DNA from: an uncultured Acidobacteriota bacterium
GTDB lineage: Bacteria > Actinomycetota > Acidimicrobiia > Spongiisociales > ZC4RG35
Assembly (NCBI GenBank): GCA_963843585.1
Contig: CAWJLJ010000014.1
Span: forward strand, 51,299 to 75,298
Length of the DNA stretch: 24,000 bases
Direction: 5' to 3'
Below the pieces are notes generated by a model, which was not told where the DNA came from, did not search any database, and saw only the letters and a list, made by a program, of their open reading frames with translations. The position numbers and the translations under genes are program-made. Below are positions 9,450-23,922 of this stretch, piece after piece (position 1 is the first letter of the stretch; each line of letters starts with the position of its first letter).

Positions 9450-9726
9450 AGAGTGGGATCCACCATGTAGCGGATCATGGCGACGAGAAAACGGCGCGGC
9501 GCCGAGTTGGGTACACGGGCGAAAGATACTCGTGTGTCGAAACACGCAGCCCAGCGAATGTACGGGTCGAAAGTCTCTGCTAGCCAGACCGACTGGGACG
9601 TAGGCTGACTTTGGCTGGACAGACCGCCGTGTCTCGCTACGTCTCACGACGCTCGTTCCACAGCCGCGCCACAGGACTGCCAATCGGTGCCGTTTCCCCT
9701 GGTGACAGGGCTTTGACATTTTTCGC

Positions 9727-9766
9727 AACGAGAAGGTCGCGGGTTCGAATCCCGCCAGCTCCACTA
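9727..9766 (+). ncRNA. tmRNA (ssrA)-like 3' terminus: T-arm plus alanine-type acceptor 3' strand; apparently an orphan fragment
   Basis: GCGGG-TTCGAAT-CCCGC (9739-9755) is followed by CAGCTCC-A (9756-9763). This would pair with a 5' GGGGCTG carrying G3:U70, the tmRNA/tRNA-Ala signature. No GGGGCTG and no tag ORF ending ..AA-stop were found within 450 nt upstream. CTA follows rather than CCA. Confidence 0.45.
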
Positions 9767-9955: not shown

Positions 9956-9983
9956 CATCCGTCCCCCCCGTCTGGTCCGAAGT
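9956..9983 (+). promoter_or_regulatory. Candidate ECF (SigK-like) promoter upstream of the fasciclin lipoprotein gene: CATCC-N17-CGAAGT
   Basis: CATCC at 9956-9960, a 17-nt spacer, and CGAAGT at 9978-9983, 41 nt before ATG 10025. It has the same architecture as the sites at 11183, 14462(-), 17110(-), 17122 and 23633(-). Confidence 0.45.
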
Positions 9984-10024: not shown

Positions 10025-10678
10025 ATGACCCGAAAGATCAGACTGTCCATGCTCATAGCGGTGCTGGCTCTGGTCGTAGCCGCGTGTGGCGATGACTCCG
10101 CGGAGGACACGACCACCACCCAAGCGGATGCAACCACCACCACCGAGGCCGAGATGACATCGACCACCGAGGCGGGGATGACGACGACCACCGAAGCCGA
10201 CGTGACGTCGACCACCGAGGCCATGATGGAAGAGACTGTCCTCGACATCGCCGCAGGCAACGAGGACTTCTCGACGCTCGCGGCCGCGGTGGAAGCCGCC
10301 GGTCTCCAGGATGCGCTCAGCGACCCTGAGGCCACCCTGACCGTATTCGCCCCGACGAATGAAGCCTTCGAAGCCGCCCTGGCGTCGCTCGGGCTGACGG
10401 CCGAAGAGCTCCTGGCCGACACGGAGACCCTGACCGCGATCCTCACCTATCACGTCCTCGGCGACATCGTCACCTCCAGCGACATCGCCGCAGCAGGAAC
10501 AGAGGAGATCCCGGTGGAAACGCTCTCCGGGGAAGAGTTGGTCGTCGTGGTCGGAGATGACGGGACGGTCGGCTTCGTCGATCAAACGGCGACAGTCACC
10601 ATGGCAGACATCGAAGCGTCCAATGGCGTGATCCACGTCATCGATGCAGTTCTCCTCCCACCATCGATGTCAAGCTAA
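10025..10678 (+). CDS. Fasciclin (FAS1) domain lipoprotein with a Thr-rich repeat linker (MPT83/MPT70-like)
   Basis: A signal peptide with lipobox LVVAAC|G, then 4 x 8-aa TTEAxMTx repeats, then a FAS1 domain (DFSTLAAAVEAAGL, TVFAPTNEAF, LTYHV, NGVIHVIDAVLLP). SD ggaaagga lies upstream. Confidence 0.9.
   Translation: MTRKIRLSMLIAVLALVVAACGDDSAEDTTTTQADATTTTEAEMTSTTEAGMTTTTEADVTSTTEAMMEETVLDIAAGNEDFSTLAAAVEAAGLQDALSDPEATLTVFAPTNEAFEAALASLGLTAEELLADTETLTAILTYHVLGDIVTSSDIAAAGTEEIPVETLSGEELVVVVGDDGTVGFVDQTATVTMADIEASNGVIHVIDAVLLPPSMSS
10139..10234 (+). repeat. Four tandem 24-nt coding repeats (ACCACCGAGGC...) inside the fasciclin gene
   Basis: The units are 10139-10162, 10163-10186, 10187-10210 and 10211-10234. 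Each starts with accaccga(g/a)gc and encodes TTEA-x-(M/V)-(T/M/E)-(S/T/E). Confidence 0.85.
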
Positions 10679-11182: not shown

Positions 11183-11210
11183 CATCCGATCGGACCGGGC
11201 GCAACGAACA
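11183..11210 (+). promoter_or_regulatory. Candidate ECF (SigK-like) promoter of the heliorhodopsin operon: CATCC-N17-CGAACA, 6 nt from the ATG
   Basis: CATCC at 11183-11187, a 17-nt spacer, CGAACA at 11205-11210, then acgtgc and ATG 11217. There is no SD sequence, which fits a leaderless transcript. Confidence 0.55.
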
Positions 11211-11216: not shown

Positions 11217-11996
11217 ATGACGACAACGACAGAGACCATCGTCACGCCCCGGGCCGGTGATCGTCTCCGTGCCTACAACGTCGGCATGGGCGCGCTCCAC
11301 GCCATCCAGGCCTTCTTGGTCCTTTGGCTGGCCAACGGATTCACGCTCCCGGTGATCGCCACATACATGGCGGGGCCTCCTGGCTCCGCTCCGCCCGCGG
11401 TGACACCCCTCTTCGAGGTGAGCATTGCCTGGGGCGTGGCAATTTTCTTGTTCATGTCCGCCGTGGCCCACTTCCTCATCGCCTCGCCCGGCATCTACCA
11501 GTTGTATCGCCAGAACCTGAATCGCCAGCGCAACTATGCCCGTTGGATCGAGTACTCCCTCTCGTCATCGGTCATGGTGGTACTGATCGCCCTTCTGACC
11601 GGGATCGCCGACATCGCAGCCCTGCTTGCCATTGCCGGAGTCAATGCATCGATGATCCTGTTCGGCCTTCTCCAGGAGAAATATGAGACACCAGGCAAGG
11701 CGGTCGGCTGGCTGCCCTTCTGGTTCGGAGTTCTGGCCGGGGCTATTCCTTGGATCGCTATCGCCTGGTACCTGTTCAGCCCCGGCTTCGATTCGAACCC
11801 TCCCGGGTTCGTGTACGGGATCTTCTTCTCCCTCTTTGTCTTCTTCAACGTGTTCGCGGTCGTCATGGTCCTGCAGTACAAGCAGGTCGGTCGGTGGGCG
11901 GACTACAGCTTCGGGGAATCGACCTACATCCTGCTCAGCCTGGTGGCCAAGTCGGCCCTGGCGTGGCAGGTATTCGGAGGAACACTGGCGACATGA
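11217..11996 (+). CDS. Heliorhodopsin (seven-TM retinal protein)
   Basis: 259 aa, collinear with the prototype heliorhodopsin 48C12 as I recall it. Shared segments are RWIEYSLSSSVMVVLIA, GIADIAALLAIAGVNASMILFGLLQEKY, LPFWFG...IPWI, PGFVYGI and YILLSLVAKSALAWQVFGGTL. The Schiff-base Lys (K245), counter-ion Glu (E112) and conserved His (H28, H85) are all present. Confidence 0.92.
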   Translation: MTTTTETIVTPRAGDRLRAYNVGMGALHAIQAFLVLWLANGFTLPVIATYMAGPPGSAPPAVTPLFEVSIAWGVAIFLFMSAVAHFLIASPGIYQLYRQNLNRQRNYARWIEYSLSSSVMVVLIALLTGIADIAALLAIAGVNASMILFGLLQEKYETPGKAVGWLPFWFGVLAGAIPWIAIAWYLFSPGFDSNPPGFVYGIFFSLFVFFNVFAVVMVLQYKQVGRWADYSFGESTYILLSLVAKSALAWQVFGGTLAT

Positions 11997-12466
11997 GACA
12001 AACCACAGGAACCGAAAGACCGGCAGATCACAAGGCGGTCCGCCTCATCGAGCAGAGATGGGTGGAGCGAGCCCAGGACGAAGCATTCATCTACACCGCC
12101 GATTTCTCCAACATCGAGGACTGGGATCCAGGTGTGGTCTCCTCTCGGGGGCTCGGCCATGGGCCCGTCGGTGTCGGCTCGCAATTCGAGCTGGAGGTCG
12201 AGTTCGGCAGTGGCACGATGCCGATGGTCTACGAGATCACGGAATACGAGCCCAGCGATCGGGTAGTCCTGGTCGGCCGGGGTGACAAGCTCGGCGCGGT
12301 CGACGAGATCCGCTTCTCACGGCACGACAACATGACCGTGATCGACTACACCGCCGACCTCACCTTCCTCAACTGGTACAGGCACATCACCCGCTTGATG
12401 GGACCAAGCCTGAAGAAGGTCGGGACCAAGGCTCTCGACGGCCTCGCGGCCGAGCTGGACAGATGA
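11993..12466 (+). CDS. SRPBCC (START/polyketide-cyclase-like) ligand-binding protein
   Basis: 157 aa. Its ATG overlaps the heliorhodopsin stop as ATGA (11993-11996). The size and pattern are typical of SRPBCC (FSNIEDWDPGV..., GSQFELEVEFGSG..., YEITEYEPSDRVVL). Confidence 0.75.
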   Translation: MRQTTGTERPADHKAVRLIEQRWVERAQDEAFIYTADFSNIEDWDPGVVSSRGLGHGPVGVGSQFELEVEFGSGTMPMVYEITEYEPSDRVVLVGRGDKLGAVDEIRFSRHDNMTVIDYTADLTFLNWYRHITRLMGPSLKKVGTKALDGLAAELDR

Positions 12467-13398
12467 ACAAGTTGGGCATCGCATCCTTCACGAACTTGGG
12501 CTACCGGCTCCACTCCCGCCGGTTCTCCCCGGTCGAGGCCGACATGACCGGCAAGACCGTCGTGGTGACGGGATCCACCGGAGGCCTCGGGCTCGAATCA
12601 GCCCGCTCCCTGTCGAGACTGGGAGCCCGGGTGGTGATCGTCGGCCGGAACGAGCAAAAGCTGGCTTCTGCGGCTGAGAGCATCGAGGGCGAGGTGATGG
12701 CGCAGCAGGCCGACCTCAGTCTGCTGGCGGAGGTCCGGCTGCTCTCCGACCGGCTCATCGAGTCAACCCCGAGGATCGACGTCCTGATCAACAACGTGGG
12801 CGTCCTCATGCCCGAGCGCACGGAGACGGACGAGGGCTTGGAGATGTCCTTCGCCACCAATCTCGCCGGCCACTTCCTACTTACCAACCTCCTGCTTCCC
12901 CGACTTGCCGAGTCGAGGCCGGCCAGGGTCATCAACGTGAGCTCCGGCGGCATGTACGCCGCCCGGATCGATCCCACCGACCTCCAGTTCATGCGGCGCC
13001 GCTACACGGGCAAGGCCGCCTATGCCAGCAGCAAGCGGGGGCAGGTCATCCTCACAGAGATGTGGGCCGAGCGCTTCCCGGGACGGAACGTGGTCTTCCA
13101 TTCGATGCACCCGGGTTGGGCCAAGACCGCCGGGGTGGCCGAGTCCTTGCCCGCTTTCAACACAGTGATGCAGCCGCTGTTGCGCACCCCGGCCGAGGGG
13201 GCCGACACCATCATCTGGCTCGCTGTGGCAGAGGAGCCCCGACGTGGGTCTGGCGGGTTCTGGTTCGACCGAGAGGAGGCGCCGACTCATCTCACTGATT
13301 CCACCCAGGAAACAGCGGCGGACCGGGCAGAGCTGTGGACTGAGTTGGCCCGAGTGACCGGGTCCGATCTCCCGGTTGGCACCGCCCACCGGGACTAG
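12463..13398 (+). CDS. Classical short-chain dehydrogenase/reductase, retinol-dehydrogenase / DHRS-like subgroup
   Basis: Its ATG overlaps the previous stop as ATGA (12463-12466). It has TGSTGGLG (the TGxxxGxG NAD(P) motif), NNVG, Ser (VSSGG) and YASSK (YxxxK). The architecture, including the ~27-aa N-terminal extension, resembles RDH11-14/DHRS12-type enzymes. Confidence 0.88.
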   Translation: MNKLGIASFTNLGYRLHSRRFSPVEADMTGKTVVVTGSTGGLGLESARSLSRLGARVVIVGRNEQKLASAAESIEGEVMAQQADLSLLAEVRLLSDRLIESTPRIDVLINNVGVLMPERTETDEGLEMSFATNLAGHFLLTNLLLPRLAESRPARVINVSSGGMYAARIDPTDLQFMRRRYTGKAAYASSKRGQVILTEMWAERFPGRNVVFHSMHPGWAKTAGVAESLPAFNTVMQPLLRTPAEGADTIIWLAVAEEPRRGSGGFWFDREEAPTHLTDSTQETAADRAELWTELARVTGSDLPVGTAHRD

Positions 13399-13432: not shown

Positions 13433-14425
13433 TCAGTGGTTAGCGGCCTCCGAACCGGTCACCCAAGCATCGACATCGGCCCACAGGTCGAATAGCCATC
13501 GCAGCCTGGACTTGTTGTCATTGGGAATGGCGCTCCGCGGAACCCGCCAGAACCTCATCTCGACCGTGGTTCCGACCAGGCCGCCCGACCACATGTCCTT
13601 GACCCGGGCAAAGCCCTCCAAACCGCGATGGGCGAGGACGACCACGTCGGCCGCGCTCGCGTCGAGAAGAGCCAGCGTGCCACCCGGCTTCGGGGGAAGC
13701 ACCCGCCGGAAGCCGGCAGCGATCTCCCCGATAGGCCCGCCCTCGTCCACCCAGCGGCGGCTGTACCTGACCCGCTTCTCCTCGCTGTATCGAGTGCCTT
13801 CCGGGTAGATGAGGACGCCCTCATCCGCTGCGAGATTGGTGGCGAGCTCCCTAAGGGCAGCCATCTCGGCCTGCGCCGATCCCCTTCGGTCGATGAAGTA
13901 GTTAGGGAGTCGGTTGCCACCGATGTCCAACGCGGGGTCGATCAAGAGTTCCTTCTTCAGGACGTAGCGCAGCTTGATCCCGTGAGGCTTGACCACGTAG
14001 CGACCGGGGAGCATCGTGTCGATCAGCGACGCGTGGCGGGATAGAAGGAGTATCGGCCCAGGCGGGATGGCGGACATCCCCTCGTCGATGAAGGTCAGGC
14101 CGAAGCTCATCCGCAAGGCGTCGAAGTTCCAGTCGAGCCAGACCTGTTGCGCCCGGTAAGTCCAGTCGATCACCCTGTGCCTGGGAAGCAACCCGACGAT
14201 CGCCAGGGCGAGGATGGCCCAAGCCTCGCCAAGCAGGTAGTACCAGGCGAAAGCGCCCGTCCGCAGCGCCATCGCCGGCGTACGCGCATTCACCCATCGA
14301 GCAGCATCGACCAACGCCCCGAGGGGCAGAAGGATCGGGAGCAGGGTCGTGAACAACACGAGACCCGCATATACGGCCGAGATCGTGATCAGCCGCCTGG
14401 TTGTGTTGGCCAGCAATGATCCCAT
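13433..14425 (-). CDS. PlsC-family (lyso)phospholipid acyltransferase, membrane-anchored
   Basis: 330 aa with N-terminal TM helices, the HX4D motif (SRHASLID) and the EGTR motif (IYPEGTRY). Confidence 0.85.
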   Translation of the reverse strand: MGSLLANTTRRLITISAVYAGLVLFTTLLPILLPLGALVDAARWVNARTPAMALRTGAFAWYYLLGEAWAILALAIVGLLPRHRVIDWTYRAQQVWLDWNFDALRMSFGLTFIDEGMSAIPPGPILLLSRHASLIDTMLPGRYVVKPHGIKLRYVLKKELLIDPALDIGGNRLPNYFIDRRGSAQAEMAALRELATNLAADEGVLIYPEGTRYSEEKRVRYSRRWVDEGGPIGEIAAGFRRVLPPKPGGTLALLDASAADVVVLAHRGLEGFARVKDMWSGGLVGTTVEMRFWRVPRSAIPNDNKSRLRWLFDLWADVDAWVTGSEAANH

Positions 14426-14433
14426 CCGCTGTC

Positions 14434-14462
14434 AATTCGGCGCCGAACAACTAACTGGATGG
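14434..14462 (-). promoter_or_regulatory. Candidate ECF (SigK-like) promoter of the acyltransferase gene: CCATCC-N17-CGAATT, 8 nt from the ATG
   Basis: The minus strand reads CCATCC-agttagttgttcggcgc-CGAATT-gacagcgg-ATG. It contains the 12-bp perfect palindrome TTCGGCGCCGAA. Confidence 0.6.
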
Positions 14463-14512: not shown

Positions 14513-15721
14513 GTGCAGCTGATGCCGTCCACCATCTTCGTCATCTGGTTTGGAGCCGCCTTTGTTCTGACGGTCAACGCCCTGCGCCGCCCGGTGCAAC
14601 CAGGGAAGGGGATCCCACCCCCGTGGCTGCCCGCCATGATCGTCTCTGAGCTGGCGCCGTGGCTCCTCCTCGTGAGGATGTTGGGAGTCGTGGCGTTCAT
14701 CTGGATCGGGGTCCTGGAGTCGGCGGCAGGCCAGGTGGGGCTGGCGCTCTTCATCCTGTCCGAGCTGGGTTTGCTGATCTTGATCGGGCGAACGCTCGCC
14801 TCCGCCCGCGCCACCGGCCACAACCCCTCCTCGTGGTCACTGTTTCGGATCTGGGACCCCCTGCCCGAGGGAGTCATTGTGATTCCGGAAGTGCACTATT
14901 GGGATGGCCTGACCCTCGATATCTACCGGCGCGCGGAGTCGACTGCGGCGCCCGCCTTGATCTATGTCCACCCGGGCTCTTGGATGAGAGGGCGCCCTGG
15001 GCGCCAGGCCAGGGCGATGTTCCATCTTCTTGCCGTCTCCGGATGGGTGGTCCTCGATATCCGCTACCCACTCTCACCCGCAGCGACGTTCCCGGAGCAT
15101 CTCATCGGCGTGAAACGTGCCATTGCATGGGCCAGGACTGGAGGTGGCGAATACGGGATCGACCCCAATCTGGTCGGCATCTCGGGCGGCTCGTCGGGCG
15201 CCCATCTTGCTGCCCTCGCCGCGCTCACCTGGGACCGGACAGAGCTTCAGCCCGGCTTCGAGGACGCGGATACCAGCGTCATCGGATGCGTGCCCTTCTA
15301 CGGGATCTACGACCTGCTGGTGAGGAACCCGACACGGTTCGACTGGCCCTTCATCGCGCGGTACGTTCTCAAGGCCGACAAGCAAGAGGCCCCAGACCTC
15401 TATCGACTGGGATCGCCCATCGATCAGGCCCGCGGTGACACGCCCCCCTTCCTCGTGATCCACGGAGAGTTCGACTCCGTCGTCCTACCGGAGGAATCAC
15501 GCCACTTTGTGGCCGCCCTCGAGAGGGTCGGGGGGCGAGTCGAGTATCACGAGATCCTGGGAGCCCAGCATGGCTTCGATGCCGTGGCATCGCTGCGCTC
15601 CAGAGCCGTGGGGCGAATGGCCGCCGAGTGGCTCGGAGGGATCGTGTCGGAGATATCCAATAGAGGTCATCCGTCTCCAGAAGCGACTCTGAATGCAACG
15701 CCGGAGGCCCATCAGGCCTGA
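14513..15721 (+). CDS. Membrane-anchored alpha/beta-hydrolase (esterase/lipase, fold-3 / ICME-like)
   Basis: About 4 N-terminal TM helices, then LDIYRR..PALIYVHPGSW, the nucleophile elbow GGSSG, and the Asp/His candidates HGEFDSVV and GAQHGFD. The start may be GTG 14513 or ATG 14522. Confidence 0.85.
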   Translation: MQLMPSTIFVIWFGAAFVLTVNALRRPVQPGKGIPPPWLPAMIVSELAPWLLLVRMLGVVAFIWIGVLESAAGQVGLALFILSELGLLILIGRTLASARATGHNPSSWSLFRIWDPLPEGVIVIPEVHYWDGLTLDIYRRAESTAAPALIYVHPGSWMRGRPGRQARAMFHLLAVSGWVVLDIRYPLSPAATFPEHLIGVKRAIAWARTGGGEYGIDPNLVGISGGSSGAHLAALAALTWDRTELQPGFEDADTSVIGCVPFYGIYDLLVRNPTRFDWPFIARYVLKADKQEAPDLYRLGSPIDQARGDTPPFLVIHGEFDSVVLPEESRHFVAALERVGGRVEYHEILGAQHGFDAVASLRSRAVGRMAAEWLGGIVSEISNRGHPSPEATLNATPEAHQA

Positions 15722-16443
15722 GTGGCCACCGCCACGACATCGCCTTCACTGATGACCACTCCGCCGGCAACCTCCCGGGTCAGGGCGAACCCCGAAACGT
15801 CACCGGTCCACGTGAAGGTCGAGGCGCGAGGCTCGTTGCCTAGTACGCCACCGGAAATCACCTGCTCGTCGGTGGTGATCACCCACAGCTGATAGGTGCG
15901 CTGAGGCATCAGGGGCTCGAGATCCTCGGTGGGAACGACGAAGCCGTGGCCATCCTCGGTGAGAATCACCTGCGCAACGGAGGAGCCGTCGACCAGGAAA
16001 TCGCCGACGTAGGCACCGCTGCTGGAGGCCGCTTGCTCGGCCGCGGCGATCACTGCCGAGTCGCCCGTCAGATCGTGGAGTAACGACCTCTGAGCCAGGG
16101 CTATACCGGCGAAGACAAGGGCGGCCACGGCGGCGATTGCGGTCAGCAAGGTCACAGCTCTGGTTCTCCGTGGCTGCCCTTCTTCGAGATCGATGACCTC
16201 GGCGGCCCGGCCGAGTGGGATGTCCGCCCCGTTTCCGATAGCCGAGGCGATCCTGTCCCATCCATGGGTCGGCGTGGGTTCGTCCGGGACCAATTTCGAC
16301 GTCACGGCCGAGTACCGGGCCAGTTCGCGAAGACAGGCGTCACATGAGTGGAGGTGAGTCATCACCGCCTGGAGCTCATTCCCCTCCAGGCTGTCGAGGG
16401 CATAGAGCGGGACCAGTTCGTGGAGGAGGCTGTGGTTCGTCAT
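15712..16443 (-). CDS. rskA: Anti-sigma factor, RskA-like, with an N-terminal zinc-binding (ZAS) HxxxCxxC motif
   Basis: Its start overlaps the sigma gene stop as ATGA. It has H-LHS-C-DA-C (ZAS motif), one central TM helix (LLTAIAAVAALVFAGIALA), and an extracytoplasmic RskA-type domain (RTYQLWVITTDEQVISGGVL). Confidence 0.82.
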   Translation of the reverse strand: MTNHSLLHELVPLYALDSLEGNELQAVMTHLHSCDACLRELARYSAVTSKLVPDEPTPTHGWDRIASAIGNGADIPLGRAAEVIDLEEGQPRRTRAVTLLTAIAAVAALVFAGIALAQRSLLHDLTGDSAVIAAAEQAASSSGAYVGDFLVDGSSVAQVILTEDGHGFVVPTEDLEPLMPQRTYQLWVITTDEQVISGGVLGNEPRASTFTWTGDVSGFALTREVAGGVVISEGDVVAVATQA

Positions 16444-16988
16444 GCTGTCGCTCCCGACAGCGAGACCGCCAGCTTCTTCATGCCGCTGCGGATTCGGCTC
16501 TTCACAGTTCCCTCGGGCTCGCCCAGCCTCTTGGCCACCTCCACGTAGCTGAGCCCACCGAAATAGGCCAGAGAGATCGCCTCCCGTTCGCTTTCGGCGA
16601 GATCGTCGAGGGCCTTGCGCACCAACTCGGACAGGTTCCGGGTCCAGACCTCGTCAGCGACGTCGTAATGATCCGGATCTGGCGGCTTCTCTTCCCTACG
16701 GGCTCGGGCCACCTCGGATCTCACAATGTCCACTGCCCTGCGATGAGCGATGGTGAGCAGGAAGGTGCGCAATGAGCCGCGCCCGGGGTCGTACTTCTCC
16801 GGCGCGTTCCAGAAACCCACGAACGTGTCCTGCACGACATCATCTGCCAAAGCCTCGTCTCTCAACACCCGGAGAGCGATGGCCTTGACTGCGCCGCCGT
16901 ACTGCTGGAAGAGAGCTTCGAGCGCGGATTGGTCGCGGCTGGCAACTCTCTCCGCAAGAAGGGCATCCGGGGTGTTCGAGTCGCTCAT
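16440..16988 (-). CDS. sigK: ECF sigma-70 family factor, SigK-like
   Basis: Region 2 is DDVVQDTFVGFW and region 4 is LAYFGGLSYVEVAKRLGEPEGTVKSRIRSGMKKL. It is co-transcribed with the rskA-like gene. The preferred start is ATG 16988 (MSDSNTPD...). An upstream in-frame ATG at 17072 lies 10 nt after the candidate -10 and could be a leaderless start. Confidence 0.85.
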   Translation of the reverse strand: MSDSNTPDALLAERVASRDQSALEALFQQYGGAVKAIALRVLRDEALADDVVQDTFVGFWNAPEKYDPGRGSLRTFLLTIAHRRAVDIVRSEVARARREEKPPDPDHYDVADEVWTRNLSELVRKALDDLAESEREAISLAYFGGLSYVEVAKRLGEPEGTVKSRIRSGMKKLAVSLSGATA

Positions 16989-17082
16989 CGACCTGCCGGC
17001 GGACACATGAACCGGGGATGTTAGGTAGGCCCCATTCCGGTAACGCCCTGGCTGCAAGCGAGCTGACTCCATCTACAACACC

Positions 17083-17110
17083 TATTCGTCACCGCCCCGA
17101 GCCCTGGATG
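17083..17110 (-). promoter_or_regulatory. Candidate autoregulatory ECF promoter of sigK-rskA: CATCC-N17-CGAATA
   Basis: The minus strand reads tCATCC-agggctcggggcggtga-CGAATA. It lies back-to-back with the plus-strand copy at 17122-17150, with the two -35 elements 11 nt apart. Confidence 0.6.
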
Positions 17111-17121
17111 AGACAGCCGAC

Positions 17122-17150
17122 CCATCCGGTCTGCTGTTCGGCGACGAATA
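17122..17150 (+). promoter_or_regulatory. Candidate ECF promoter of the oxidoreductase-DUF1365-CFA synthase operon: CCATCC-N17-CGAATA, 6 nt from the ATG
   Basis: CCATCC-ggtctgctgttcggcga-CGAATA-cgcggc-ATG(17157). There is no SD, and it shares GTTCGGCG(A/C)CGAAT with the sites at 14434 and 23605. Confidence 0.62.
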
Positions 17151-17156
17151 CGCGGC

Positions 17157-18467
17157 ATGGGACAGAGAATCGCGATCGTCGGAACGGGCATCTCCGGTCT
17201 CGGCGCCGCCTGGGCCTTGCATCGGGACAATGACATCACGGTCTTCGAGGCGGACAATCGGATAGGCGGCCATTCGAATACCGTCGATGTCGAGACCCCC
17301 GATGGTCCTCTGGCGGTCGACACCGGATTCATCGTTTACAACGAGGTCACCTACCCCAACCTGACCCGCCTCTTCTCGTCGCTCGGCGTATCCACCGAAA
17401 TGAGTGACATGTCGTTTGCCTTCTCCCTGGACCGCCAGTTCGAGTACGGGGCGAGCCTGAGTGGGGTTTTGGCCGAGCCGGGCAACCTCCTCAGCCCGAG
17501 GTTCCTCCGGATGCTTCGAGACATAAGTCGATTCCGCCGCATCGGGACCATGCTGGAGCCGGCGGGCGACGAGAACATCGGCGAACTCCTCGAACGGTAC
17601 GGCTTCTCCCAAGGCTTCCTCGATGACTACCTCTACCCCATGACCGGTGCGATCTGGTCGGCTCAGCGATCGAATATCAGCATGTTCCCCGCTGCGTCGA
17701 TTCTCCGCTTTCTGGCCAACCACGGATTGATCGAGATCGTGGGGCGGCCCAGGTGGCGGACTGTGACCGGTGGGAGCCGGAGCTATGTCAATCGACTTGT
17801 GAGGCCCTTTGCCGACCGAATCAGAACGAACTCGCCCGTGAATCGCATCGTCCGCCTCGGCGGTGAGGTGCTGGTCGAGTCCAATGGGCAGACGCAGTCG
17901 TTCGAACAGATCATCTTCGCCACCCACCCCGATCAGGCTCTGGCCATCCTCGGTGAGGACGCCACCGATACCGAGGGCGCCGTACTCGGTGCCATGCGGT
18001 ATGAGTCGAACGTCGCCGTCCTCCATAGCGACTCGAGCCTGATGCCCCGGAACCGCAGGGTTTGGTCCAGCTGGAATGCGATGGCGGAGGAAGCCGGCCG
18101 CCGTCACCAGGTGGCCTCGGTGACCTACTGGATGAACCGCCTCCAGAACCTCAACCCCTCGTACCCCTTGTTCGTCTCCCTCAATCCGTTGCGGGAGCCG
18201 GATCCAGGCCAGGTTCACGCTCGTTTCGCATACGCCCACCCACAGTTCGATCTCGAATCGGTGGCGGCACAACAGGGTCTCGCCGCGATCCAGGGCCTGA
18301 GCAACACCTGGTTCGCCGGGGCCTACCTCGGCTACGGCTTCCACGAGGACGGGCTCCAGTCAGGTCTCAACGTGGCAGCGGCCCTCGGCTCCCCGGTGCC
18401 ATGGCACGGCACTTTCGAACCAGTTAGCTCGGCCCCGTCCTTCACGGGGAGGGTGGTGGTCCCTTGA
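17157..18467 (+). CDS. FAD/NAD(P)-binding amine-oxidase-family oxidoreductase (Rv0449c-like)
   Basis: 436 aa with an N-terminal Rossmann motif RIAIVGTGISGLGAAW...VFEA..RIGGH. The size and context match the flavin oxidoreductase that accompanies DUF1365 and CFA-synthase genes. Confidence 0.85.
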   Translation: MGQRIAIVGTGISGLGAAWALHRDNDITVFEADNRIGGHSNTVDVETPDGPLAVDTGFIVYNEVTYPNLTRLFSSLGVSTEMSDMSFAFSLDRQFEYGASLSGVLAEPGNLLSPRFLRMLRDISRFRRIGTMLEPAGDENIGELLERYGFSQGFLDDYLYPMTGAIWSAQRSNISMFPAASILRFLANHGLIEIVGRPRWRTVTGGSRSYVNRLVRPFADRIRTNSPVNRIVRLGGEVLVESNGQTQSFEQIIFATHPDQALAILGEDATDTEGAVLGAMRYESNVAVLHSDSSLMPRNRRVWSSWNAMAEEAGRRHQVASVTYWMNRLQNLNPSYPLFVSLNPLREPDPGQVHARFAYAHPQFDLESVAAQQGLAAIQGLSNTWFAGAYLGYGFHEDGLQSGLNVAAALGSPVPWHGTFEPVSSAPSFTGRVVVP

Positions 18468-19246
18468 GGCCGTTACGGTCTGCCCTCTACCAGGGCCGGG
18501 TGCGCCACACCCGGCTCCAGCCCTTTCATCACGATTTCGAGTACCGGGTCTTCTACGGGCTATTCGATATCGACGAGCTCGACTACCTCGACCGGGGACT
18601 CAGGCTCTTCTCAGTCGGAAGACGCAACCTGGCGAGCTTCTACCCCCAGGACCATGGCCCCGTCGACGGGAGCTCTCTTCGAGCCTGGGCCGAAGACGTC
18701 CTCGCAGAGGCGGGTGTCGACATCGACGGCGGAAGGATCGAGCTGCTCGCCTTCCCCCGGATCCTCGGCTACGCCTTCAACCCGTTGAGCGTCTGGTACT
18801 GCTACGGGAGCGAAGGCAATCTCAAAGGAGTCCTCCACGAGGTGCGGAACACGTTCGGTGACCGCCACGTGTACGTGGTGCCCGTCAATGATGAGACGGC
18901 GTACCGACACAGCTTCGCCAAGGCGATGCACGTATCCCCTTTCAATCCGATGGAGCAGACCTACCACTTCACGGTCAACCGGCCCGGGAAGCGGCTTCAA
19001 GTGGCGATCGAGCAGACCGACGAAAGGGGCAAGGTGTTCCGGGCGGGGATGAGGCTCTCACGGATTCCCTTGACCGACCGCAATCTGCTCAGGGTCTTCT
19101 TCACTCACCCCCTGGTGACGATGAAGGTCATCGCAGGGATCCACTGGCAAGCCCTGCGGCTCTGGCTCAAGGGCGCCACCTATCGGAAACGCCCTCGGCC
19201 CCCCGCCGATAGCATCACGATCGTGGACCCGAGCATGGTCGGATGA
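18464..19246 (+). CDS. DUF1365-family protein
   Basis: 260 aa. Its TTG start overlaps the previous stop as TTGA. The motifs SALYQGRVRHTR..P..H.F.YRVFY and FPRILGYAFNPLSVWYCY are typical of DUF1365. Confidence 0.8.
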   Translation: MRPLRSALYQGRVRHTRLQPFHHDFEYRVFYGLFDIDELDYLDRGLRLFSVGRRNLASFYPQDHGPVDGSSLRAWAEDVLAEAGVDIDGGRIELLAFPRILGYAFNPLSVWYCYGSEGNLKGVLHEVRNTFGDRHVYVVPVNDETAYRHSFAKAMHVSPFNPMEQTYHFTVNRPGKRLQVAIEQTDERGKVFRAGMRLSRIPLTDRNLLRVFFTHPLVTMKVIAGIHWQALRLWLKGATYRKRPRPPADSITIVDPSMVG

Positions 19247-20409
19247 AGGCCCGGGAGCGGCTAGGTCTCCGCGTCTTCTCCTGGCTGGCACGTGCAGGGA
19301 GCATCCAGGTGACGCTTCCCACCGGGGAGACGGTATCGATCGGCCACGGGTCGCCCGGCGCCGACGTCGAGATCACGGACTATTCGGCCGTGGCCGACAT
19401 CCTCCGCACCGGCCTCACCGGATTCGCGGAGGCGCATATGGACGGGCGGATCGAGACCTCGGACCTTCCCGCCCTGCTCCGCTGGGGCGTAGCCAACCAA
19501 GCCGCCTGGTTCGAGCACCCCCTGGCCCGTCTGACGCTGCCCTTCCGGAGGCTGTGGCAGCGGATCCGTCCCGAGAGACGGCACCCGCGAGTGCGAAGCA
19601 TGAACGATCATTACAACCTCGGAAACGACTTCTACGAGAAGTGGCTCGACGAAACGATGACCTACTCCTCCGCCCGTTTCCTCGACCCCGACCAACCGCT
19701 GTCGGGAGCCCAGATGAACAAGTACCGGCTGATCGCGGACAAGGCTGGCTTGGCGCCCGGGATGCGGGTACTCGAGATCGGATGCGGTTGGGGAGGATTC
19801 GCCGAATACGCAGCCTCGGAAAGAGGCTGTGAGGTCACCGCAATCACCTTATCCAAGGAGCAGGCGTCCTACGCCGAGAAGCGGATCGCCGAGCGCGGCC
19901 TGGCCGACAAGGTCGAGATCCGGCTCGCCGACTTCAGGGACATCACCGGCGAATTTGACGCAGTCGTCTCCATCGAGATGATCGAATCGGTCGACGAGAC
20001 CCATTGGCCGGCCCTGTTCGAGATGATCGCCGACCGCCTCAAGCCAGAGGCGCGGGCTGCGATGCAGATCATCACGATCAGAGACGACGAGTGGGAGCGC
20101 TACCGATCCAGGGCCGACTTCATACAGCAGTACATCTTCCCCGGGGGACAGATCCCGGCGCCCAAGGTCCTCAAGGCGTTCGCCGGCAAGGCCCGTCTGG
20201 ACGTGGAGCAAATCGAGACCTTCGGCCTCGACTACGCGCGAACCCTGGCGGCTTGGCGGGACCGCTTCCTGGAGGCGTGGCCGGTGCTCCAGGTTGAACA
20301 CGACCTCGACGAGCGTTTCCGCCGCATGTGGGAGCTGTACCTCGCCCTTTGCGAGGCGGGGTTCCGCATGGGGCGGATCAACGTCGAGCAGTGGGTATTC
20401 GCCCGCTGA
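19243..20409 (+). CDS. Cyclopropane-fatty-acyl-phospholipid synthase-family SAM-dependent methyltransferase
   Basis: Its ATG overlaps the previous stop as ATGA. It has HYNLGNDFYEKWLDETMTYSSA, the SAM motif VLEIGCGWGGFA, DAVVSIEMIE, FIQQYIFPGG and YLALCEAGF. Confidence 0.88.
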   Translation: MKARERLGLRVFSWLARAGSIQVTLPTGETVSIGHGSPGADVEITDYSAVADILRTGLTGFAEAHMDGRIETSDLPALLRWGVANQAAWFEHPLARLTLPFRRLWQRIRPERRHPRVRSMNDHYNLGNDFYEKWLDETMTYSSARFLDPDQPLSGAQMNKYRLIADKAGLAPGMRVLEIGCGWGGFAEYAASERGCEVTAITLSKEQASYAEKRIAERGLADKVEIRLADFRDITGEFDAVVSIEMIESVDETHWPALFEMIADRLKPEARAAMQIITIRDDEWERYRSRADFIQQYIFPGGQIPAPKVLKAFAGKARLDVEQIETFGLDYARTLAAWRDRFLEAWPVLQVEHDLDERFRRMWELYLALCEAGFRMGRINVEQWVFAR

Positions 20410-20453: not shown

Positions 20454-20481
20454 CATCTGAATCACTCGACCGCTCCGAAGC
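20454..20481 (+). promoter_or_regulatory. Weaker match to the ECF motif: CATCT-N17-CGAAGC, upstream of the 20535 gene
   Basis: tCATCT-gaatcactcgaccgctc-CGAAGC, 53 nt before ATG 20535, which has its own SD gaaggag. There is one mismatch in the -35 and the -10 is degenerate. Confidence 0.3.
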
Positions 20482-20534: not shown

Positions 20535-20939
20535 ATGCGCAAGCTGATGCTTCTCATGGCCGTGATGGTGGTGGCGATACTGCCGGCCACGGCCGCAATG
20601 GCCCAGTCGGACGAGGGTCAGGTCATCGTGGTTCACGGTGTTCCCGATCTGGACGTCGACGTGTACGTCAACGGTGAGCTCACCCTCGAGGGCTTTCAGT
20701 TCGGCGATGTAGCCGGTCCGCTGGACCTGCCCGCCGGCACCTACGAGATCGAGATATTCGCCGCCCTCTACCCGAAGGAAGAGCTGCCCCTGGACGCTAT
20801 CTTCTCCAAGGAGGGGCCTCCGGTGCTGACACTCATTACGTGCGGCGGCGGCTTTGATCCAGGCGTCGCTCGCTACGACAGCAACGTCGTCGTCTACGCC
20901 ACGCCAGCTGTCGACCTCCCGGCTTCTTTGATCGGGTGA
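20535..20939 (+). CDS. Secreted chimeric protein: signal peptide plus DUF4397-like N-terminal half fused to a sortase (class F-like) C-terminal tail
   Basis: Signal peptide MRKLMLLMAVMVVAILPATAAMA. The segment VIVVHGVPDLDVDVYVNG...LPAGTYEIEI is DUF4397-like. The segment LPLDAIFSKEGPPVLTLITCGGGFDPGVARYDSNVVVYATP is a sortase C-terminus with the TLxTC Cys and a downstream Arg, but there is no His-bearing sortase core. Confidence 0.6.
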   Translation: MRKLMLLMAVMVVAILPATAAMAQSDEGQVIVVHGVPDLDVDVYVNGELTLEGFQFGDVAGPLDLPAGTYEIEIFAALYPKEELPLDAIFSKEGPPVLTLITCGGGFDPGVARYDSNVVVYATPAVDLPASLIG

Positions 20940-21985
20940 TGGTGTCCTTCTCACGCTCGACCACAGGTAGCCTCCACGCTTTCGTAACGGAGCGAAAAGT
21001 GGATGAAAGCAGCCTCAGATCTGCGCGGCTCGGAGTCACCGCGGCCGCCCTTTCGGGGGACTCCGGCGGGCTCTACAACATCGTTGCCCGCCTCATGGAT
21101 GAGGGGGTTCCTCTCGACTCGCTGCTCTTCGACCTCCTCCTTCCCACTGAAAGAGATGTCGGATCGCGATGGCAAAGCGGGGATTACCTGGTCTCGGAGG
21201 AACACACCGCGACGGCCACAGTCGAGACCGTCGTCGCGCTCCTTGCGGGGTCGTTGGACCAACCAGAGGACGGCCTCCATGTCGTGGTTGCCTCAGCTGA
21301 AGGCGACTCTCACTCCTTGGCAGGCCGGGCCGTGGTCGCCTATCTACTCTTCAGCGGATTCCGGACCACCTTCCTCGGCGCCAACGTGCTCGCAACCGAC
21401 CTGCGGGAGTTCCTCGCCAGCGAGCAGCCCGACGCGATGATCATCTCCTGCACGATGACCAACCATCTCATCGGAGCCAGGGCAGTGATCAGCCAGAGCC
21501 ACTCCGCAGACGTGCCTGTACTCGCGGGAGGGCGGGCGTTCGGCGGGACCGGGGCGTGGGCGACCACGCTCGGAGCCGACGCCTGGGCGTCGCACCCGAG
21601 AGAGATCCCAGGCGTCCTACAGACCTGGGTGCCAGACGTAAGAGCGTCCGAGAGCCGGGCTCGTAACCCTTCGGACGACCTGCTGAAGCTGATCGAACGA
21701 CGCACCTCGGTTCTCGCTCGAGCACAGGAGGATCTGGAGCGACGTCTCGGAGAAACGCCTGGCCCCCGCCTGCGAGACGAGCTCGCCCTGCTTCTCGGCG
21801 CTGTCGAAGCGTCTTTGCTGGTAGGCGACAACGAGGTGGTCGTCGAGGCTCTCAAGTGGCAAAGAGCGACCCTCCAGGCCCACGGGCACGGCGACTCGGG
21901 CCCACTGACGGAGGCCGTCATTGCAGGCTTGCAGCCGGTATCCCTCGAAGCCGCCGAGGCTCTTCGCTCCGCCCTGTCCAGTTAG
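20936..21985 (+). CDS. Stand-alone cobalamin (B12)-binding protein, CarH/AerR-like, lacking a DNA-binding domain
   Basis: A four-helix-bundle region carries W79-x9-E89-H90 (RWQSGDYLVSEEH). A Rossmann-like B12-binding domain carries DSHSLA (the DxHxxG-type lower-ligand His126) and VLAGG. A ~130-aa helical C-terminal extension follows. The start is uncertain: GTG 20936 or ATG 20939 (coupled to the upstream stop), or GTG 20999 with ggag upstream. Confidence 0.75.
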   Translation: MMVSFSRSTTGSLHAFVTERKVDESSLRSARLGVTAAALSGDSGGLYNIVARLMDEGVPLDSLLFDLLLPTERDVGSRWQSGDYLVSEEHTATATVETVVALLAGSLDQPEDGLHVVVASAEGDSHSLAGRAVVAYLLFSGFRTTFLGANVLATDLREFLASEQPDAMIISCTMTNHLIGARAVISQSHSADVPVLAGGRAFGGTGAWATTLGADAWASHPREIPGVLQTWVPDVRASESRARNPSDDLLKLIERRTSVLARAQEDLERRLGETPGPRLRDELALLLGAVEASLLVGDNEVVVEALKWQRATLQAHGHGDSGPLTEAVIAGLQPVSLEAAEALRSALSS

Positions 21986-22063: not shown

Positions 22064-23596
22064 TTAGATCGGTGGCTTCGGGCGTCGGCCGGCCACCTCG
22101 ACAATGCGACGGGCCATCGGGCCGAAAACCATCGAATGGAACGGCCAGAGCAGATACCAGTAGAGGCGACCTGCCAGTCCGCGTGGGGCGAAGTGAGCGG
22201 TCTGGATCAGACTGGTATGGCCACTCTTGCTTTCGACTTCAAACTCGAGCCAGGCCTCGCCAGGCAATCTCATCTCGGCGACCAGCAGGAGGCGTCGGTT
22301 GTCTTCGAGGTCGGCCACCCGCCAGAAGTCGAGTGTGTCACCTCGCACCAAAGCAGTGCGGGGTCCCGCATTTCGCTGGAGGCCGACACCGCCCACCACA
22401 CGGTCGATCAGACCTCGAAACCACCAGGCCCAACCGGCGGCGTAGTAGCCAACTTCGCCTCCTATCCGTGTCACTGCCCAGTAGACGTCCGCTGCCGGAG
22501 CTGCCGTTTCCACCACCTTGCGGTCCCGCAGCCAGCGGGCACCGGCCCAGGCCGGATCGGTTGGCAGGCTCACCGCCGGTTGCTCCACAGCCTCGTGCCA
22601 TCGGGTTTCATCGGTGTTCCCCTCCACCCTTTCCAGGGCGTCAGAAACGGCCTCGCGATACGGGCTGAGGGGACGCTCGACAAACTCTGTTGCCGCGTTC
22701 TCGGTGACAACGACCTCGGTGATGAGGCTGTCTATGAGGGTGCGCGCGATTCGGGTGGGCACTGCGGTGACGAGACCCACCCATCGAGAGGAGAGCGAGG
22801 GGGAGAACATCGGCACTGGCAAGATCAGGCGGTGCCGAAGACCGGCCTCTTCGGCGTAGATCTGCATCATGTCCCTGTAGGTGAGAACGTCGGGACCGCC
22901 CACCTCCAGCATCTGATGATCGGCCAGGTCGTGATCGAGCAGTCCGACAAGAACTGCCAATACATCCCTGGCAGCGATGGGCTGGCATCGAGTCTGAACC
23001 CAACGAGGCGTGATCATCACTGGAAGCACCTCGGTCAGATGTCGAAGCATTTCGAACGAGACCGAGCCCGACCCGATGATCACTGCCGCCCTGACCTCAC
23101 TGAGTGCGATCGGACCGGCGGCGAGAACCCGACCTACCTCTTGACGGCTGGCCAGATGGCCGGAGAGGTTGGTCGAGCCTCCCAGACCACCCATGTAGAT
23201 GATCCTCTGCACGCCCTGACGTTCCGCCGCCCGACGGAAGTTCTCGGCGGCTTGACGGTCACGGGTGGCAAACCCCTCGCCGCCGTCCATCGAGTGAATC
23301 AGGTAGTAGGCGGTGTCAATCCCCTCCAGAGCGGCGTCCAACGATGCCCGCTCCAGAGCATCCGCCACCGCCACCTCCACCTGCTTATGCCAGGGGTGGC
23401 CGCTGAGACCCTCGGCGCTCCGCACCATGCAACGCACCTGATAGCCCGCCGCCAGGAGTTGGGGCACCAGGCGGCCCCCCAGGTAGCCACTGGCTCCGGT
23501 CACCAGCAATGTGGATCCGGAAGTGCGTGCGGGGTCAGCCGACGATGGCTCCGCTGATGCCCTCTCGTACTGTTGCAAAGCATCCTCGTTCGTCAT
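22064..23596 (-). CDS. Atypical SDR / NmrA-like NAD(P)-binding domain fused to a DUF2867 domain
   Basis: 510 aa with LLVTGASGYLGGRL (Rossmann fold) and an extended-SDR-like N-terminal half. The C-terminal ~150 aa (WRVADLE...LLLVAEMRLPGEAWLEFEV...) are typical of DUF2867. Confidence 0.82.
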   Translation of the reverse strand: MTNEDALQQYERASAEPSSADPARTSGSTLLVTGASGYLGGRLVPQLLAAGYQVRCMVRSAEGLSGHPWHKQVEVAVADALERASLDAALEGIDTAYYLIHSMDGGEGFATRDRQAAENFRRAAERQGVQRIIYMGGLGGSTNLSGHLASRQEVGRVLAAGPIALSEVRAAVIIGSGSVSFEMLRHLTEVLPVMITPRWVQTRCQPIAARDVLAVLVGLLDHDLADHQMLEVGGPDVLTYRDMMQIYAEEAGLRHRLILPVPMFSPSLSSRWVGLVTAVPTRIARTLIDSLITEVVVTENAATEFVERPLSPYREAVSDALERVEGNTDETRWHEAVEQPAVSLPTDPAWAGARWLRDRKVVETAAPAADVYWAVTRIGGEVGYYAAGWAWWFRGLIDRVVGGVGLQRNAGPRTALVRGDTLDFWRVADLEDNRRLLLVAEMRLPGEAWLEFEVESKSGHTSLIQTAHFAPRGLAGRLYWYLLWPFHSMVFGPMARRIVEVAGRRPKPPI

Positions 23597-23604
23597 CCAC
23601 TAGT

Positions 23605-23633
23605 GATTCGGCGCCGAACCTTGTCGTGGATTG
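23605..23633 (-). promoter_or_regulatory. Candidate ECF promoter of the SDR-DUF2867 gene: CAATCC-N17-CGAATC, 8 nt from the ATG
   Basis: The minus strand reads CAATCC-acgacaaggttcggcgc-CGAATC-actagtgg-ATG(23596). It shares the 14-mer ATTCGGCGCCGAAC with the acyltransferase promoter. Confidence 0.55.
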
Positions 23634-23781
23634 CATCTGGTCGACCGACAGGTTCGCTGTCTGGTACTGGCCGCGGACTATGCCTCTTCATCGGTCCGCC
23701 GAAGCGGGCCGAGATGGCGGTTGATCTCGCCTGGTTCCAGCGTGACCTGCGGTGGGCGGCAACCCGGCCTGGTCTTGAGGG

Positions 23782-23922
23782 TCGGCGCCCTCGGCAGGAT
23801 TCGAACCTGCGACACCCGGTTTAGGAAACCTGCTCTGTATTTGGGCCTCCCAACACCCGAAAACGCCAATAAACATAGGGTTTTCGCGTTCTCTAAGGTT
23901 GGCGCGTTCCGGTGCTCAGTTT
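23782..23922 (-). repeat. 141-bp repeat copy 3 containing the tRNA-Arg(CCU)-like element (minus strand, about 23786-23864)
   Basis: A direct repeat of 5153-5293 with about 7 differences. Three of them are pairing-preserving changes in one hairpin. Confidence 0.8.

Follow-up and report, generated by a model that had tools for sequence, protein, structure and literature searches.

The DNA considered here is a 24,000-nt stretch of one contig (C14:51299-75298 of genome G000), called the window below, and positions refer to it unless a contig or locus is named. It very probably holds a SigK-type regulon. In this regulon an extracytoplasmic function (ECF) sigma factor, encoded with its membrane anti-sigma factor RskA, is predicted to direct a fatty-acid-modifying operon, a heliorhodopsin operon, an operon for a secreted DUF4397 protein and a stand-alone photocobilin-like B12 protein, a PlsC acyltransferase, a membrane esterase, a fasciclin lipoprotein and an SDR-DUF2867 protein. 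Taken as a whole, the account that we favour is an almost self-contained SigK-type (ECF19-related) regulon with a photo-oxidative trigger and a lipid output, and we consider it probable. The source assembly (3.4 Mb, 65% GC, 94%-complete) represents an uncultured soil actinobacterium (Acidimicrobiia), and uncultured Acidimicrobiia metagenome-assembled genomes hold near-identical loci. Below, L numbers denote orthologous or sampled loci in other genomes, G numbers denote genomes and C numbers denote contigs, which belong to the source genome unless another genome is named.

Pfam and NCBIfam confirmed, in position and identity, every gene named in an initial annotation of the window, including all those of the sigK-rskA / FAD oxidoreductase / DUF1365 / CFA synthase locus at 15712-20409. 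The genes of the regulon are as follows.

10025-10678, + strand: MPT83-like fasciclin (FAS1) lipoprotein (Pfam Fasciclin, 103 bits; lipobox VAAC)
11217-11996, + strand: heliorhodopsin (PF18761, 337 bits)
about 12050-12466, + strand: SRPBCC protein of the heliorhodopsin operon
12463-13398, + strand: SDR protein of the heliorhodopsin operon (operon span 11217-13398)
13433-14425, - strand: PlsC-type acyltransferase (Pfam Acyltransferase; start codon at 14425)
14513-15721, + strand: membrane-anchored BD-FAE / alpha-beta-hydrolase esterase or lipase (BD-FAE, 118 bits; hydrophobic N-terminus)
15712-16443, - strand: RskA, single-pass anti-sigma factor (N-terminal zinc-binding anti-sigma (ZAS) motif HLHSCDAC, one transmembrane helix, extracytoplasmic RskA_C)
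16440-17072, - strand: SigK-like ECF sigma factor, cysteine-free (Pfam, PDB match, maximum-likelihood tree)
17157-18467, + strand: UfaD-like FAD/NAD-binding amine-oxidase-type putative fatty-acyl desaturase (Pfam Amino_oxidase and NAD_binding_8; family and operon position as in RSP1091 UfaD, PMC7380195)
18464-19246, + strand: UfaO-like DUF1365 protein, candidate O2-dependent furan-ring former (Pfam DUF1365, 281 bits)
19243-20409, + strand: CMAS-family S-adenosylmethionine-dependent fatty-acyl methyltransferase, candidate UfaM (276 bits)
20535-20939, + strand: truncated DUF4397/sortase-tail chimera, ahead of the B12 gene
20936-21985, + strand: stand-alone photocobilin-like B12 photoreceptor (W-x9-EH motif, PDB match)
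22064-23596, - strand: NAD(P)-binding NmrA/SDR-like protein with a DUF2867 domain (Pfam)

The shared promoter motif

The motif [C/A]ATCC[G/A]-N15-nCGAA was found ahead of sigK, ufaD, heliorhodopsin-SRPBCC-SDR, PlsC, the fasciclin gene and SDR-DUF2867, and a weaker CATCTG variant was found ahead of DUF4397-photocobilin. In the form ATCC-N17-CGAA it occurred seven times in the window where 1.05 occurrences were expected, and none of 100 shuffles reached seven. A scan of the whole genome with [CA]ATCC[GA]-N15-nCGAA gave 47 matches, seven of which were intergenic and 5′ of a gene on the same strand. Six of these seven fell within the window, preceding the fasciclin, heliorhodopsin, PlsC, sigK, ufaD and SDR-DUF2867 genes. 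Control spacers of 12, 13, 17 and 19 nt yielded 0-2 intergenic same-strand matches genome-wide. The predicted promoters are listed below.

9956-9982, + strand: fasciclin promoter, CATCCG-N15-CCGAAG
11183-11209, + strand: heliorhodopsin operon promoter, CATCCG-N15-ACGAAC; the CGAA core stops 9 nt short of the ATG
14423-14461, both strands: overlapping divergent promoter pair with the palindromic core TTCGGCGCCGAA; N15 at 14435-14461 (-) towards PlsC, N14 at 14423-14447 (+) towards the esterase
17084-17110, - strand: sigK-rskA autoregulatory promoter, CATCCA-N15-ACGAAT
17123-17149, + strand: ufaD-ufaO-cfa promoter, CATCCG-N15-ACGAAT, ending 9 nt before the ATG
20454-20480, + strand: DUF4397-photocobilin promoter, CATCTG-N15-CCGAAG, with a weaker -35 element
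23594-23632, both strands: second overlapping pair on a TTCGGCGCCGAA core; N15 at 23606-23632 (-) towards SDR-DUF2867, N14 at 23594-23618 (+) with no clear target gene

The fasciclin lipoprotein at 10025 does carry the motif, as had been claimed for it. From the end of CGAA to the start codon the distance was 9-13 nt for heliorhodopsin, ufaD, PlsC, SDR-DUF2867 and the long form of sigK, which fits leaderless mRNAs. The sigK gene may start at 16988 (182 aa, as in most database homologues) or at 17072 (210 aa, leaderless). The two exported proteins had longer leaders, with purine-rich stretches 5′ of the start that resemble Shine-Dalgarno sequences.

N14 versions of the motif were also seen elsewhere in the genome, at C13:9688-9712 (-), C34:36104-36128 (-) and C17:56934-56958 (+), 13-68 nt 5′ of genes. 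By sequence reading, these genes encode a small membrane protein, a 168-aa SRPBCC-like protein and a protein with a WhiB-like cysteine pattern. They may be extra members of the regulon or targets of a paralogous sigma factor.

Conservation of the motif in relatives

Orthologous loci from the same genus, family and order were footprinted, the motif being sought at most 200 nt 5′ of each homologue. The relatives are not independent and the following counts of loci with the motif therefore overstate significance, although the contrast with internal genes and with out-of-order heliorhodopsins is unaffected.

ufaD: 9 of 9
DUF4397, leading the B12 operon: 8 of 9
SRPBCC leading its operon, heliorhodopsin absent: 5 of 5
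SRPBCC behind heliorhodopsin: 0 of 6
PlsC: 7 of 10, the other three lying behind rskA in one operon
sigK: 7 of 14
heliorhodopsin at least 72% identical, non-window loci: 14 of 15
heliorhodopsin more distant, same order: 7 of 20, as the variant CATCC[GA]-N14/15-nCGTA
heliorhodopsin, other orders of the class: 0 of 20
internal operon genes, negative control: 0 of 43 (UfaO 0/10, CMAS 0/9, SDR 0/14, rskA 0/10)

The fasciclin promoter was kept in L006, L038 and L120. Since the spacers were unrelated between genera, the two short elements appear to be kept by selection. Conservation of the motif across diverged orthologous loci thus upholds the proposal of the initial annotation that the promoter extends to the heliorhodopsin operon, PlsC and SDR-DUF2867. 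Its further suggestion, that the promoter reaches a B12 binder, is likewise upheld for the operon concerned, as the motif precedes the DUF4397-B12 operon in most orthologues. The B12 gene itself lacks a separate promoter, being placed behind the DUF4397 gene, where the -35 element is the weaker CATCTG. Heliorhodopsin genes at most 10 kb from the sigma gene occurred in seven genomes, representing five genera and three families of one order; the genomes sampled from elsewhere had none.

Bidirectional promoters

Between PlsC and the esterase the spacer reads CATCCG-7 nt-TTCGGCGCCGAA-8 nt-TGGATG. The TTCGGCGCCGAA core consists of two opposed CGAA elements 4 bp apart, each with a CATCC at the right distance. 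This two-way arrangement was found again, with diverged sequence, in L013, L021 and L022, where the spacing is N15 on both strands. Two close copies of the window block, L120 and L121, showed it as well and, as in the window, have N14 on one strand. The SDR-DUF2867 promoter pair was kept in L033, L034 and L036. At the SigK sites of Mycobacterium-like and Streptomyces-like loci N14 is the normal spacing, and this, together with the conservation of the two-way arrangement, makes the esterase a probable member of the regulon. Its transcription would start from the other half of the bidirectional ECF promoter. The only match upstream of the esterase had been described earlier as an N16 mirror-image site and left unresolved. 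The site is real, but it is not a stray mirror, being half of a conserved bidirectional promoter.

The sigma factor and its anti-sigma factor

The sigma factor contains the Pfam domains Sigma70_r2 and Sigma70_r4_2 only, that is, group IV architecture. Its best match among solved structures was M. tuberculosis SigK (4nqw, E 2.9e-28), followed by R. sphaeroides RpoE (E 8e-19), and M. tuberculosis SigL was also behind. The NCBIfam SigK subfamily was its top match, at 165 bits against a cutoff of 226. A homologue search with the protein gave only close Acidimicrobiia relatives. In the maximum-likelihood tree the window sigma and its order-level homologues formed a clade (support 100/98), which was the sister (89/81) of the canonical SigK clade (99/97). 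The latter contained the M. tuberculosis protein and a second sigma factor of the source genome (contig C26). The other ECF sigma factors of the source genome, SigL and SigE were outside (95/91), and RpoE was basal and could not be placed.

The window sigma is a cysteine-free sister lineage of canonical SigK and does not lie within the canonical clade. Its initial assignment as SigK/ECF19-type, with placement outside that group named as a refutation, needs qualifying accordingly. SigK is its nearest relative among solved structures and the other ECF sigma factors are excluded in the tree, but it is sister to the canonical clade and scores below the subfamily cutoff. No cysteine was present in it or in any of its 21 homologues from the same order, so the disulfide switch of M. 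tuberculosis SigK (C133-C183) is absent. This cysteine pair is found in 56-94% of ECF18/19 members (PMC7509140).

Directly downstream, rskA overlaps the stop codon of sigK by 4 nt. The RskA_C domain scored 52 bits in Pfam (cutoff 29.4). The ZAS motif H-x3-C-x2-C, previously noted as HxxxCxxC, can be read in the N-terminal domain as HLHSCDAC, and it was kept in 13 homologues of related genomes. Against Pfam zf-HC2 the protein scored 20.7 bits, slightly below the 22.2-bit cutoff. Membership of the ChrR family was considered and rejected, because the C-terminal domain is RskA_C, following a transmembrane helix, and not a cupin.

In the two closest relatives, whose loci are about 90% identical, rskA is cut down to a C-terminal fragment (L035 5257-5409; L038 5370-5711). 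No rskA was detected adjoining sigK in L019, L020 and L025, of which L019 and L020 are on contigs of only 10-12 kb. The photocobilin gene stays beside sigK in all of these loci (L035, L038, L019, L020 and L025). A full-length RskA without the ZAS motif was seen in L041.

A second, canonical cassette is present outside the window, at C26:4629-8794. It comprises sigK2-rskA2 (ZAS motif HLADCRQC), divergent from genes for a membrane molybdopterin oxidoreductase and a lipoprotein with two FAS1 domains, and has three AATCC[GA]-N14-GCGAAC sites. As its own sites are N14, the C26 paralogue could likewise read the esterase half-site in the window.

The lipid operon

The ufaD, DUF1365 and CMAS genes are translationally coupled by 4-nt overlaps and are divergent from sigK-rskA. 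The order ufaD-ufaO-cfa was almost universal in 40 DUF1365 loci sampled across Actinomycetota. In R. sphaeroides, RSP1091 is the desaturase UfaD, RSP1090 is UfaO (DUF1365, O2-dependent furan formation) and RSP2144 is UfaM (Lemke 2020, PMC7380195). A single operon, ufaD-ufaO-ufaM, suffices for making furan fatty acids in R. palustris (PMC7380195). The gene order in the window is that of RSP1091-1089 and RPA2571-2569 (PMC7380195). The CMAS gene was the only full-length CMAS found in the genome and, given the same order and the divergent layout, we read it as the equivalent of UfaM. The product of ufaD-ufaO-cfa is on this comparison probably furan fatty acids.

The photoreceptors

The heliorhodopsin aligned to 48C12 with E ~1e-76, including the Schiff-base Lys (LVAKSALAWQ) and the counter-ion Glu (RWIEYSLSSS). 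In the B12 protein the W-x9-EH motif reads RWQSGDYLVSEEH, and Pfam detected B12-binding_2 and B12-binding only, with no DNA-binding domain. It matched the photocobilin structures 8j2x/8j2w (E 5e-34, residues 29-319), and the alignment to 8j2x covers the four-helix bundle, the B12 Rossmann domain and the C-terminal helical domain. Judged by these features, the B12 protein is a stand-alone photocobilin-like photoreceptor.

DNA-binding B12 regulators adjoin the ufaD-ufaO-cfa/SRPBCC/SDR/NmrA-like/DUF4397 set in other Actinomycetota lineages. They are of the MerR-B12, CarH/LitR type in L085 and L093, and HTH_17-B12 in L114. The locus at L085 1165-13392 (G341, from another family of the phylum) brings together an ECF sigma, a heliorhodopsin, an NmrA-like protein, cfa-ufaO-ufaD, an SDR, an SRPBCC and a CarH-type MerR-B12 regulator. 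There TGCATAGGTT is found 5′ of the sigma gene and of ufaD, replacing the CATCC/CGAA motif, and the variant GCGTAGGTT is also found 5′ of the sigma gene. In L085 TGCATAGGTT may be a CarH operator.

Proposed mechanism and alternatives

We infer that the motif is read by SigK, and the following sequence of events would then account for the regulon. RskA, a membrane-bound anti-sigma factor whose HxxxCxxC motif is of the zinc type, would keep SigK inactive until a membrane or oxidative signal, most likely photo-oxidative (light-made singlet oxygen or lipid peroxides), inactivates it. Free SigK would read [C/A]ATCC[G/A]-N15(14)-nCGAA[T] promoters, most of them at 8-13 nt from the start codon and so expected to give leaderless mRNAs, and turn on its own operon. 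Through ufaD-ufaO-cfa, unsaturated phospholipid acyl chains would be turned into methylated, conjugated and furan fatty acids, which would scavenge singlet oxygen. PlsC and the membrane esterase, turned on from one bidirectional promoter, would carry out deacylation and reacylation of damaged lipids. SigK would also turn on heliorhodopsin-SRPBCC-SDR, the secreted DUF4397 protein with the stand-alone photocobilin, and the MPT83-like fasciclin lipoprotein and SDR-DUF2867 protein.

A quite different view of the motif would make it the operator of a repressor binding the palindrome TTCGGCGCCGAA, and not a promoter for the adjacent sigma factor. Three sites do hold a perfect or near-perfect 12-bp palindrome, but they are only three of the seven, and the palindrome is explained by two opposed CGAA -10 elements at divergent genes, on which ground a repressor operator was rejected. 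Moreover, every site has a fixed orientation and a start codon 8-55 nt away, the motif stands ahead of the sigma gene itself, and it matches sites at loci of mycobacterial relatives that are experimentally SigK-dependent. We regard a repressor as very improbable. Production of cyclopropane or mid-chain methyl-branched (tuberculostearic-type) chains by the lipid operon, and not furan fatty acids, deserves more weight but is still unlikely. The CMAS family spans cyclopropane synthases as well as methylene and methyl transferases, and the window gene is below all NCBIfam equivalog cutoffs (266 bits against 400 for CFA synthase); M. tuberculosis ufaA1 has also been ascribed to 10-methylstearate production (PMC7791843). 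Against this, the DUF1365 (UfaO) gene is coupled between the other two, as in the furan-sufficient operon of R. palustris (PMC7380195). The bfaAB 10-methyl pathway, whose reductase BfaA is annotated as 'FAD oxidase' in databases, was rejected as a model for the operon. The window flavoprotein is of the amine-oxidase/NAD_binding_8 (UfaD) type, unlike BfaA, and the bfaAB genes are distinct from ufaA1 according to their authors (Blitzblau 2021, PMC7791843).

The nature of the signal is the part of the favoured account that we hold most tentatively. Light or singlet oxygen has, in our analysis, slightly less than an even chance of being the trigger. It is preferred because two photoreceptor families are in the regulon, because the homologous lipid operon is at the core of the R. 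sphaeroides singlet-oxygen response (PMC3546557), and because CarH/LitR-type B12 regulators adjoin the same gene set elsewhere. Alternatively, the same regulon could respond to envelope or thiol-redox stress of a general kind, the trigger assumed for SigK of mycobacteria, with the photoreceptors as outputs or passengers. An extracytoplasmic input is suggested by RskA_C and the transmembrane helix, the regulon includes a fasciclin lipoprotein and a secreted DUF4397 protein, and M. tuberculosis SigK responds to macrophage contact and envelope-active compounds (PMC7509140, PMC5547695). Photolyase and carotenoid genes were not found in the genome, which would also agree with such a trigger. The photoreceptor promoters, kept before nearly all orthologous heliorhodopsin genes (14/15) and photocobilin operons (8/9), speak against it, as do the CarH/LitR-type light repressors and the homology of the lipid operon just mentioned. 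We consider envelope or thiol-redox stress rather unlikely.

Several observations count against the favoured account. The 94%-complete genome yielded no photolyase FAD domain, phytoene synthase or haem oxygenase, so a typical set of light-protection genes is lacking, and no clear source of retinal or biliverdin is apparent. A search for Blh was uninformative on the retinal source, as it gave no match in any control genome. Photolyase as a regulon member in the fashion of R. sphaeroides was rejected, none having been found. The signal of M. tuberculosis SigK has been described as 'still unknown', without a link to light (Veyrier 2020, PMC7509140). As RskA_C is extracytoplasmic and not a ChrR cupin, the sensing mechanism of R. 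sphaeroides is not simply transferable. The product specificity of the CMAS enzyme is not readable from its sequence, and the C26 sigma, whose motif is very similar, could read some of the window promoters.

Comparison with known systems

At its core the locus belongs to a familiar type of module, in which an ECF19-related SigK system is accompanied by a ufa operon. We compared the motif with the SigK sites at Mycobacterium-like and Streptomyces-like loci, in place of a published SigK or sigmaE consensus, and the two are identical. CATCC/AATCC-N14/15-CCGAAT was found 5′ of ufaD or ufaO, the fasciclin gene and sigK in the Mycobacterium-like loci L100, L111, L116 and L118 and in the Streptomyces-like loci L101 and L104. 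The Mycobacterium-like locus L105 has the order ufaD-ufaO-cfa-...-sigK, which is the layout given for Rv0449c-Rv0445c, a GTCC variant of the -35 element, and a SigK about 80% identical to the 4nqw chain by sequence reading. In M. tuberculosis sigK is autoregulated via the Rv0449c promoter, and an mpt83-sigK-rskA cassette with a conserved SigK site has been described (Veyrier 2020, PMC7509140). That the Rv0449c and mpt70 promoters depend on SigK was established by experiment (PMC7509140). The gene-set parallel with M. tuberculosis sigK-rskA that the initial annotation had drawn is therefore borne out by gene order, shared motif and literature.

Like the M. tuberculosis system (ECF19; Rv0449c-Rv0444c with mpt70/mpt83), that of the window has an RskA_C anti-sigma factor directly downstream, predicted autoregulation, the same promoter type, and a ufaD-like/DUF1365/CMAS operon and a fasciclin lipoprotein as predicted targets. 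It differs in its sister-clade sigma without cysteines, in an RskA with a canonical HxxxCxxC, and in the sigK operon being divergent from ufaD and not downstream of it. It also adds heliorhodopsin, photocobilin, PlsC, the esterase, SRPBCC-SDR and SDR-DUF2867, and the source genome has an additional canonical fasciclin-sigK-rskA cassette elsewhere.

The likeness drawn there to the sigmaE-ChrR system of R. sphaeroides (ECF11) also agrees with published work. The core sigmaE regulon there comprises rpoE-chrR, the divergent RSP1091-1087 operon, whose UfaD, UfaO and cfa-like genes are ordered as in the window, and a photolyase-cfa pair (Nam 2013, PMC3546557; PMC7380195). Furan fatty acids are the product of UfaM, UfaD and UfaO, the first two of which are required for anti-sigma turnover (PMC3546557, PMC7380195). 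Both systems have a sigma/anti-sigma pair divergent from an FAD desaturase-DUF1365-CFA-like operon and a ZAS-type anti-sigma N-terminus, and in both the predicted output is the modification of membrane fatty acids. In the window, however, the anti-sigma factor has RskA_C and a transmembrane helix in place of a soluble ChrR cupin, and the sigma is nearer SigK than RpoE. The source organism also differs, in that its genome had no detectable photolyase and the host is not phototrophic.

CarH/LitR B12-dependent light regulons include the LitR-LitS ECF pair of Streptomyces and CarH and CarQ-CarR of Myxococcus. Like them, the window has a W-x9-EH B12 photoreceptor in a gene set with an ECF sigma, and other Actinomycetota have the ufaDO/SRPBCC/SDR(/heliorhodopsin) set adjoining true MerR-B12 regulators. 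Unlike them, its B12 protein has no DNA-binding domain and is downstream of the sigma's promoter, and carotenoid genes were not found. The closest structural relative of the B12 protein, SasPcob (PDB 8J2W/8J2X; Zhang 2024, PMC10979010), was published without a known partner or regulon, whereas the window gene lies within about 4 kb of the sigma gene in a predicted SigK-type regulon. The function of stand-alone photocobilins was called 'less clear' in that paper, which does not mention SigK or ECF sigmas (PMC10979010).

Heliorhodopsins have been described in operons with partner genes (AbHeR-glutamine synthetase, PMC9529153; survey, PMC8612252), and a role in mitigating light-induced oxidative stress has been proposed for them. 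Co-transcription with soluble enzymes is predicted in the window also, but the partners are SRPBCC and SDR proteins and transcription is apparently dependent on an ECF sigma. The gene-context survey considered the transcriptional control of heliorhodopsins unclear (Bulzu 2021, PMC8612252), and the words 'sigma', 'B12' and 'cyclopropane' occur nowhere in its main text. We found no functional link between heliorhodopsin and a sigma factor in the literature, judged mostly by titles and abstracts, and nothing relevant that joins SigK with CCGAAT.

The flanking repeats and neighbouring genes

Two 144-nt direct repeats, at 5150-5293 and 23779-23922, are 95% identical, lie 18,629 bp apart and bracket the whole regulon block. 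Each has on its minus strand a partial tRNA-Arg(CCU)-like sequence, namely the 3′ two-thirds; no tRNA was called in either repeat by ARAGORN or Rfam. The repeats may be the footprint of an integrated island. Inside the bracketed block, at 5847-9764 (-), a 1305-aa adenylate-cyclase / AAA / TPR protein is encoded without the motif. In two relatives, cyclase-domain genes are directly 5′ of the SRPBCC-SDR promoter (L017 15030-15632; L018 3004-3525). Within the 5′ part of the long cyclase ORF, GGTTCGAATCCCGCCAGCTCCACTA at about 9735-9765 resembles the T-arm and acceptor end of a tRNA or tmRNA, and ARAGORN and Rfam reported nothing at that position.

The DUF4397 gene is a 134-aa in-frame remnant, in which a signal peptide is followed by the beginning of DUF4397 and then by a sortase-like tail containing TLITC. 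Matches to its N- and C-terminal parts are about 1.2-1.5 kb apart in L018, L019, L020, L029 and L037, which indicates that the window copy lacks the middle part.

Two blocks of fasciclin-heliorhodopsin-SRPBCC-SDR-PlsC-esterase genes, 90-100% identical to the window, were present in one genome (G019:C12 and G019:C13; L120 and L121). In both copies the contig end falls within the esterase gene, and PlsC is frameshifted in one of them. The two copies could be a strain mixture or a duplication. This genome was considered as a case of a heliorhodopsin promoter without a sigma factor and was rejected, since the contigs stop within the esterase gene.

Implications

The new features of the locus are the cysteine-free sister lineage of SigK, the conserved, predicted control over heliorhodopsin and stand-alone photocobilin operons, and the bidirectional promoter architecture, in which the two directions of a conserved ECF promoter share a palindromic -10 core. 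The furan-fatty-acid stress module, if the operon is correctly read, is extended from Proteobacteria to Actinomycetota. Three questions meet in one 14-kb island: the role and regulation of heliorhodopsins, the targets of stand-alone photocobilins and the signal of SigK-RskA. The island offers them a shared and testable regulatory context, with defined promoters, a sigma/anti-sigma pair and a compact target list that could be moved into laboratory hosts.

A broader and more speculative reading, which we think improbable as it stands, is that the SigK-type regulons of Actinomycetota were ancestrally light or photo-oxidative responses into which the photoreceptors feed back. The photocobilin would act light-dependently on SigK or RskA and would step in wherever rskA is degraded or absent, and heliorhodopsin with the SRPBCC and SDR proteins would sense light at the furan-lipid membrane. 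Were this so, the long-unknown signal of mycobacterial SigK-RskA would be identified, and heliorhodopsin and stand-alone photocobilins would have their first defined pathway.

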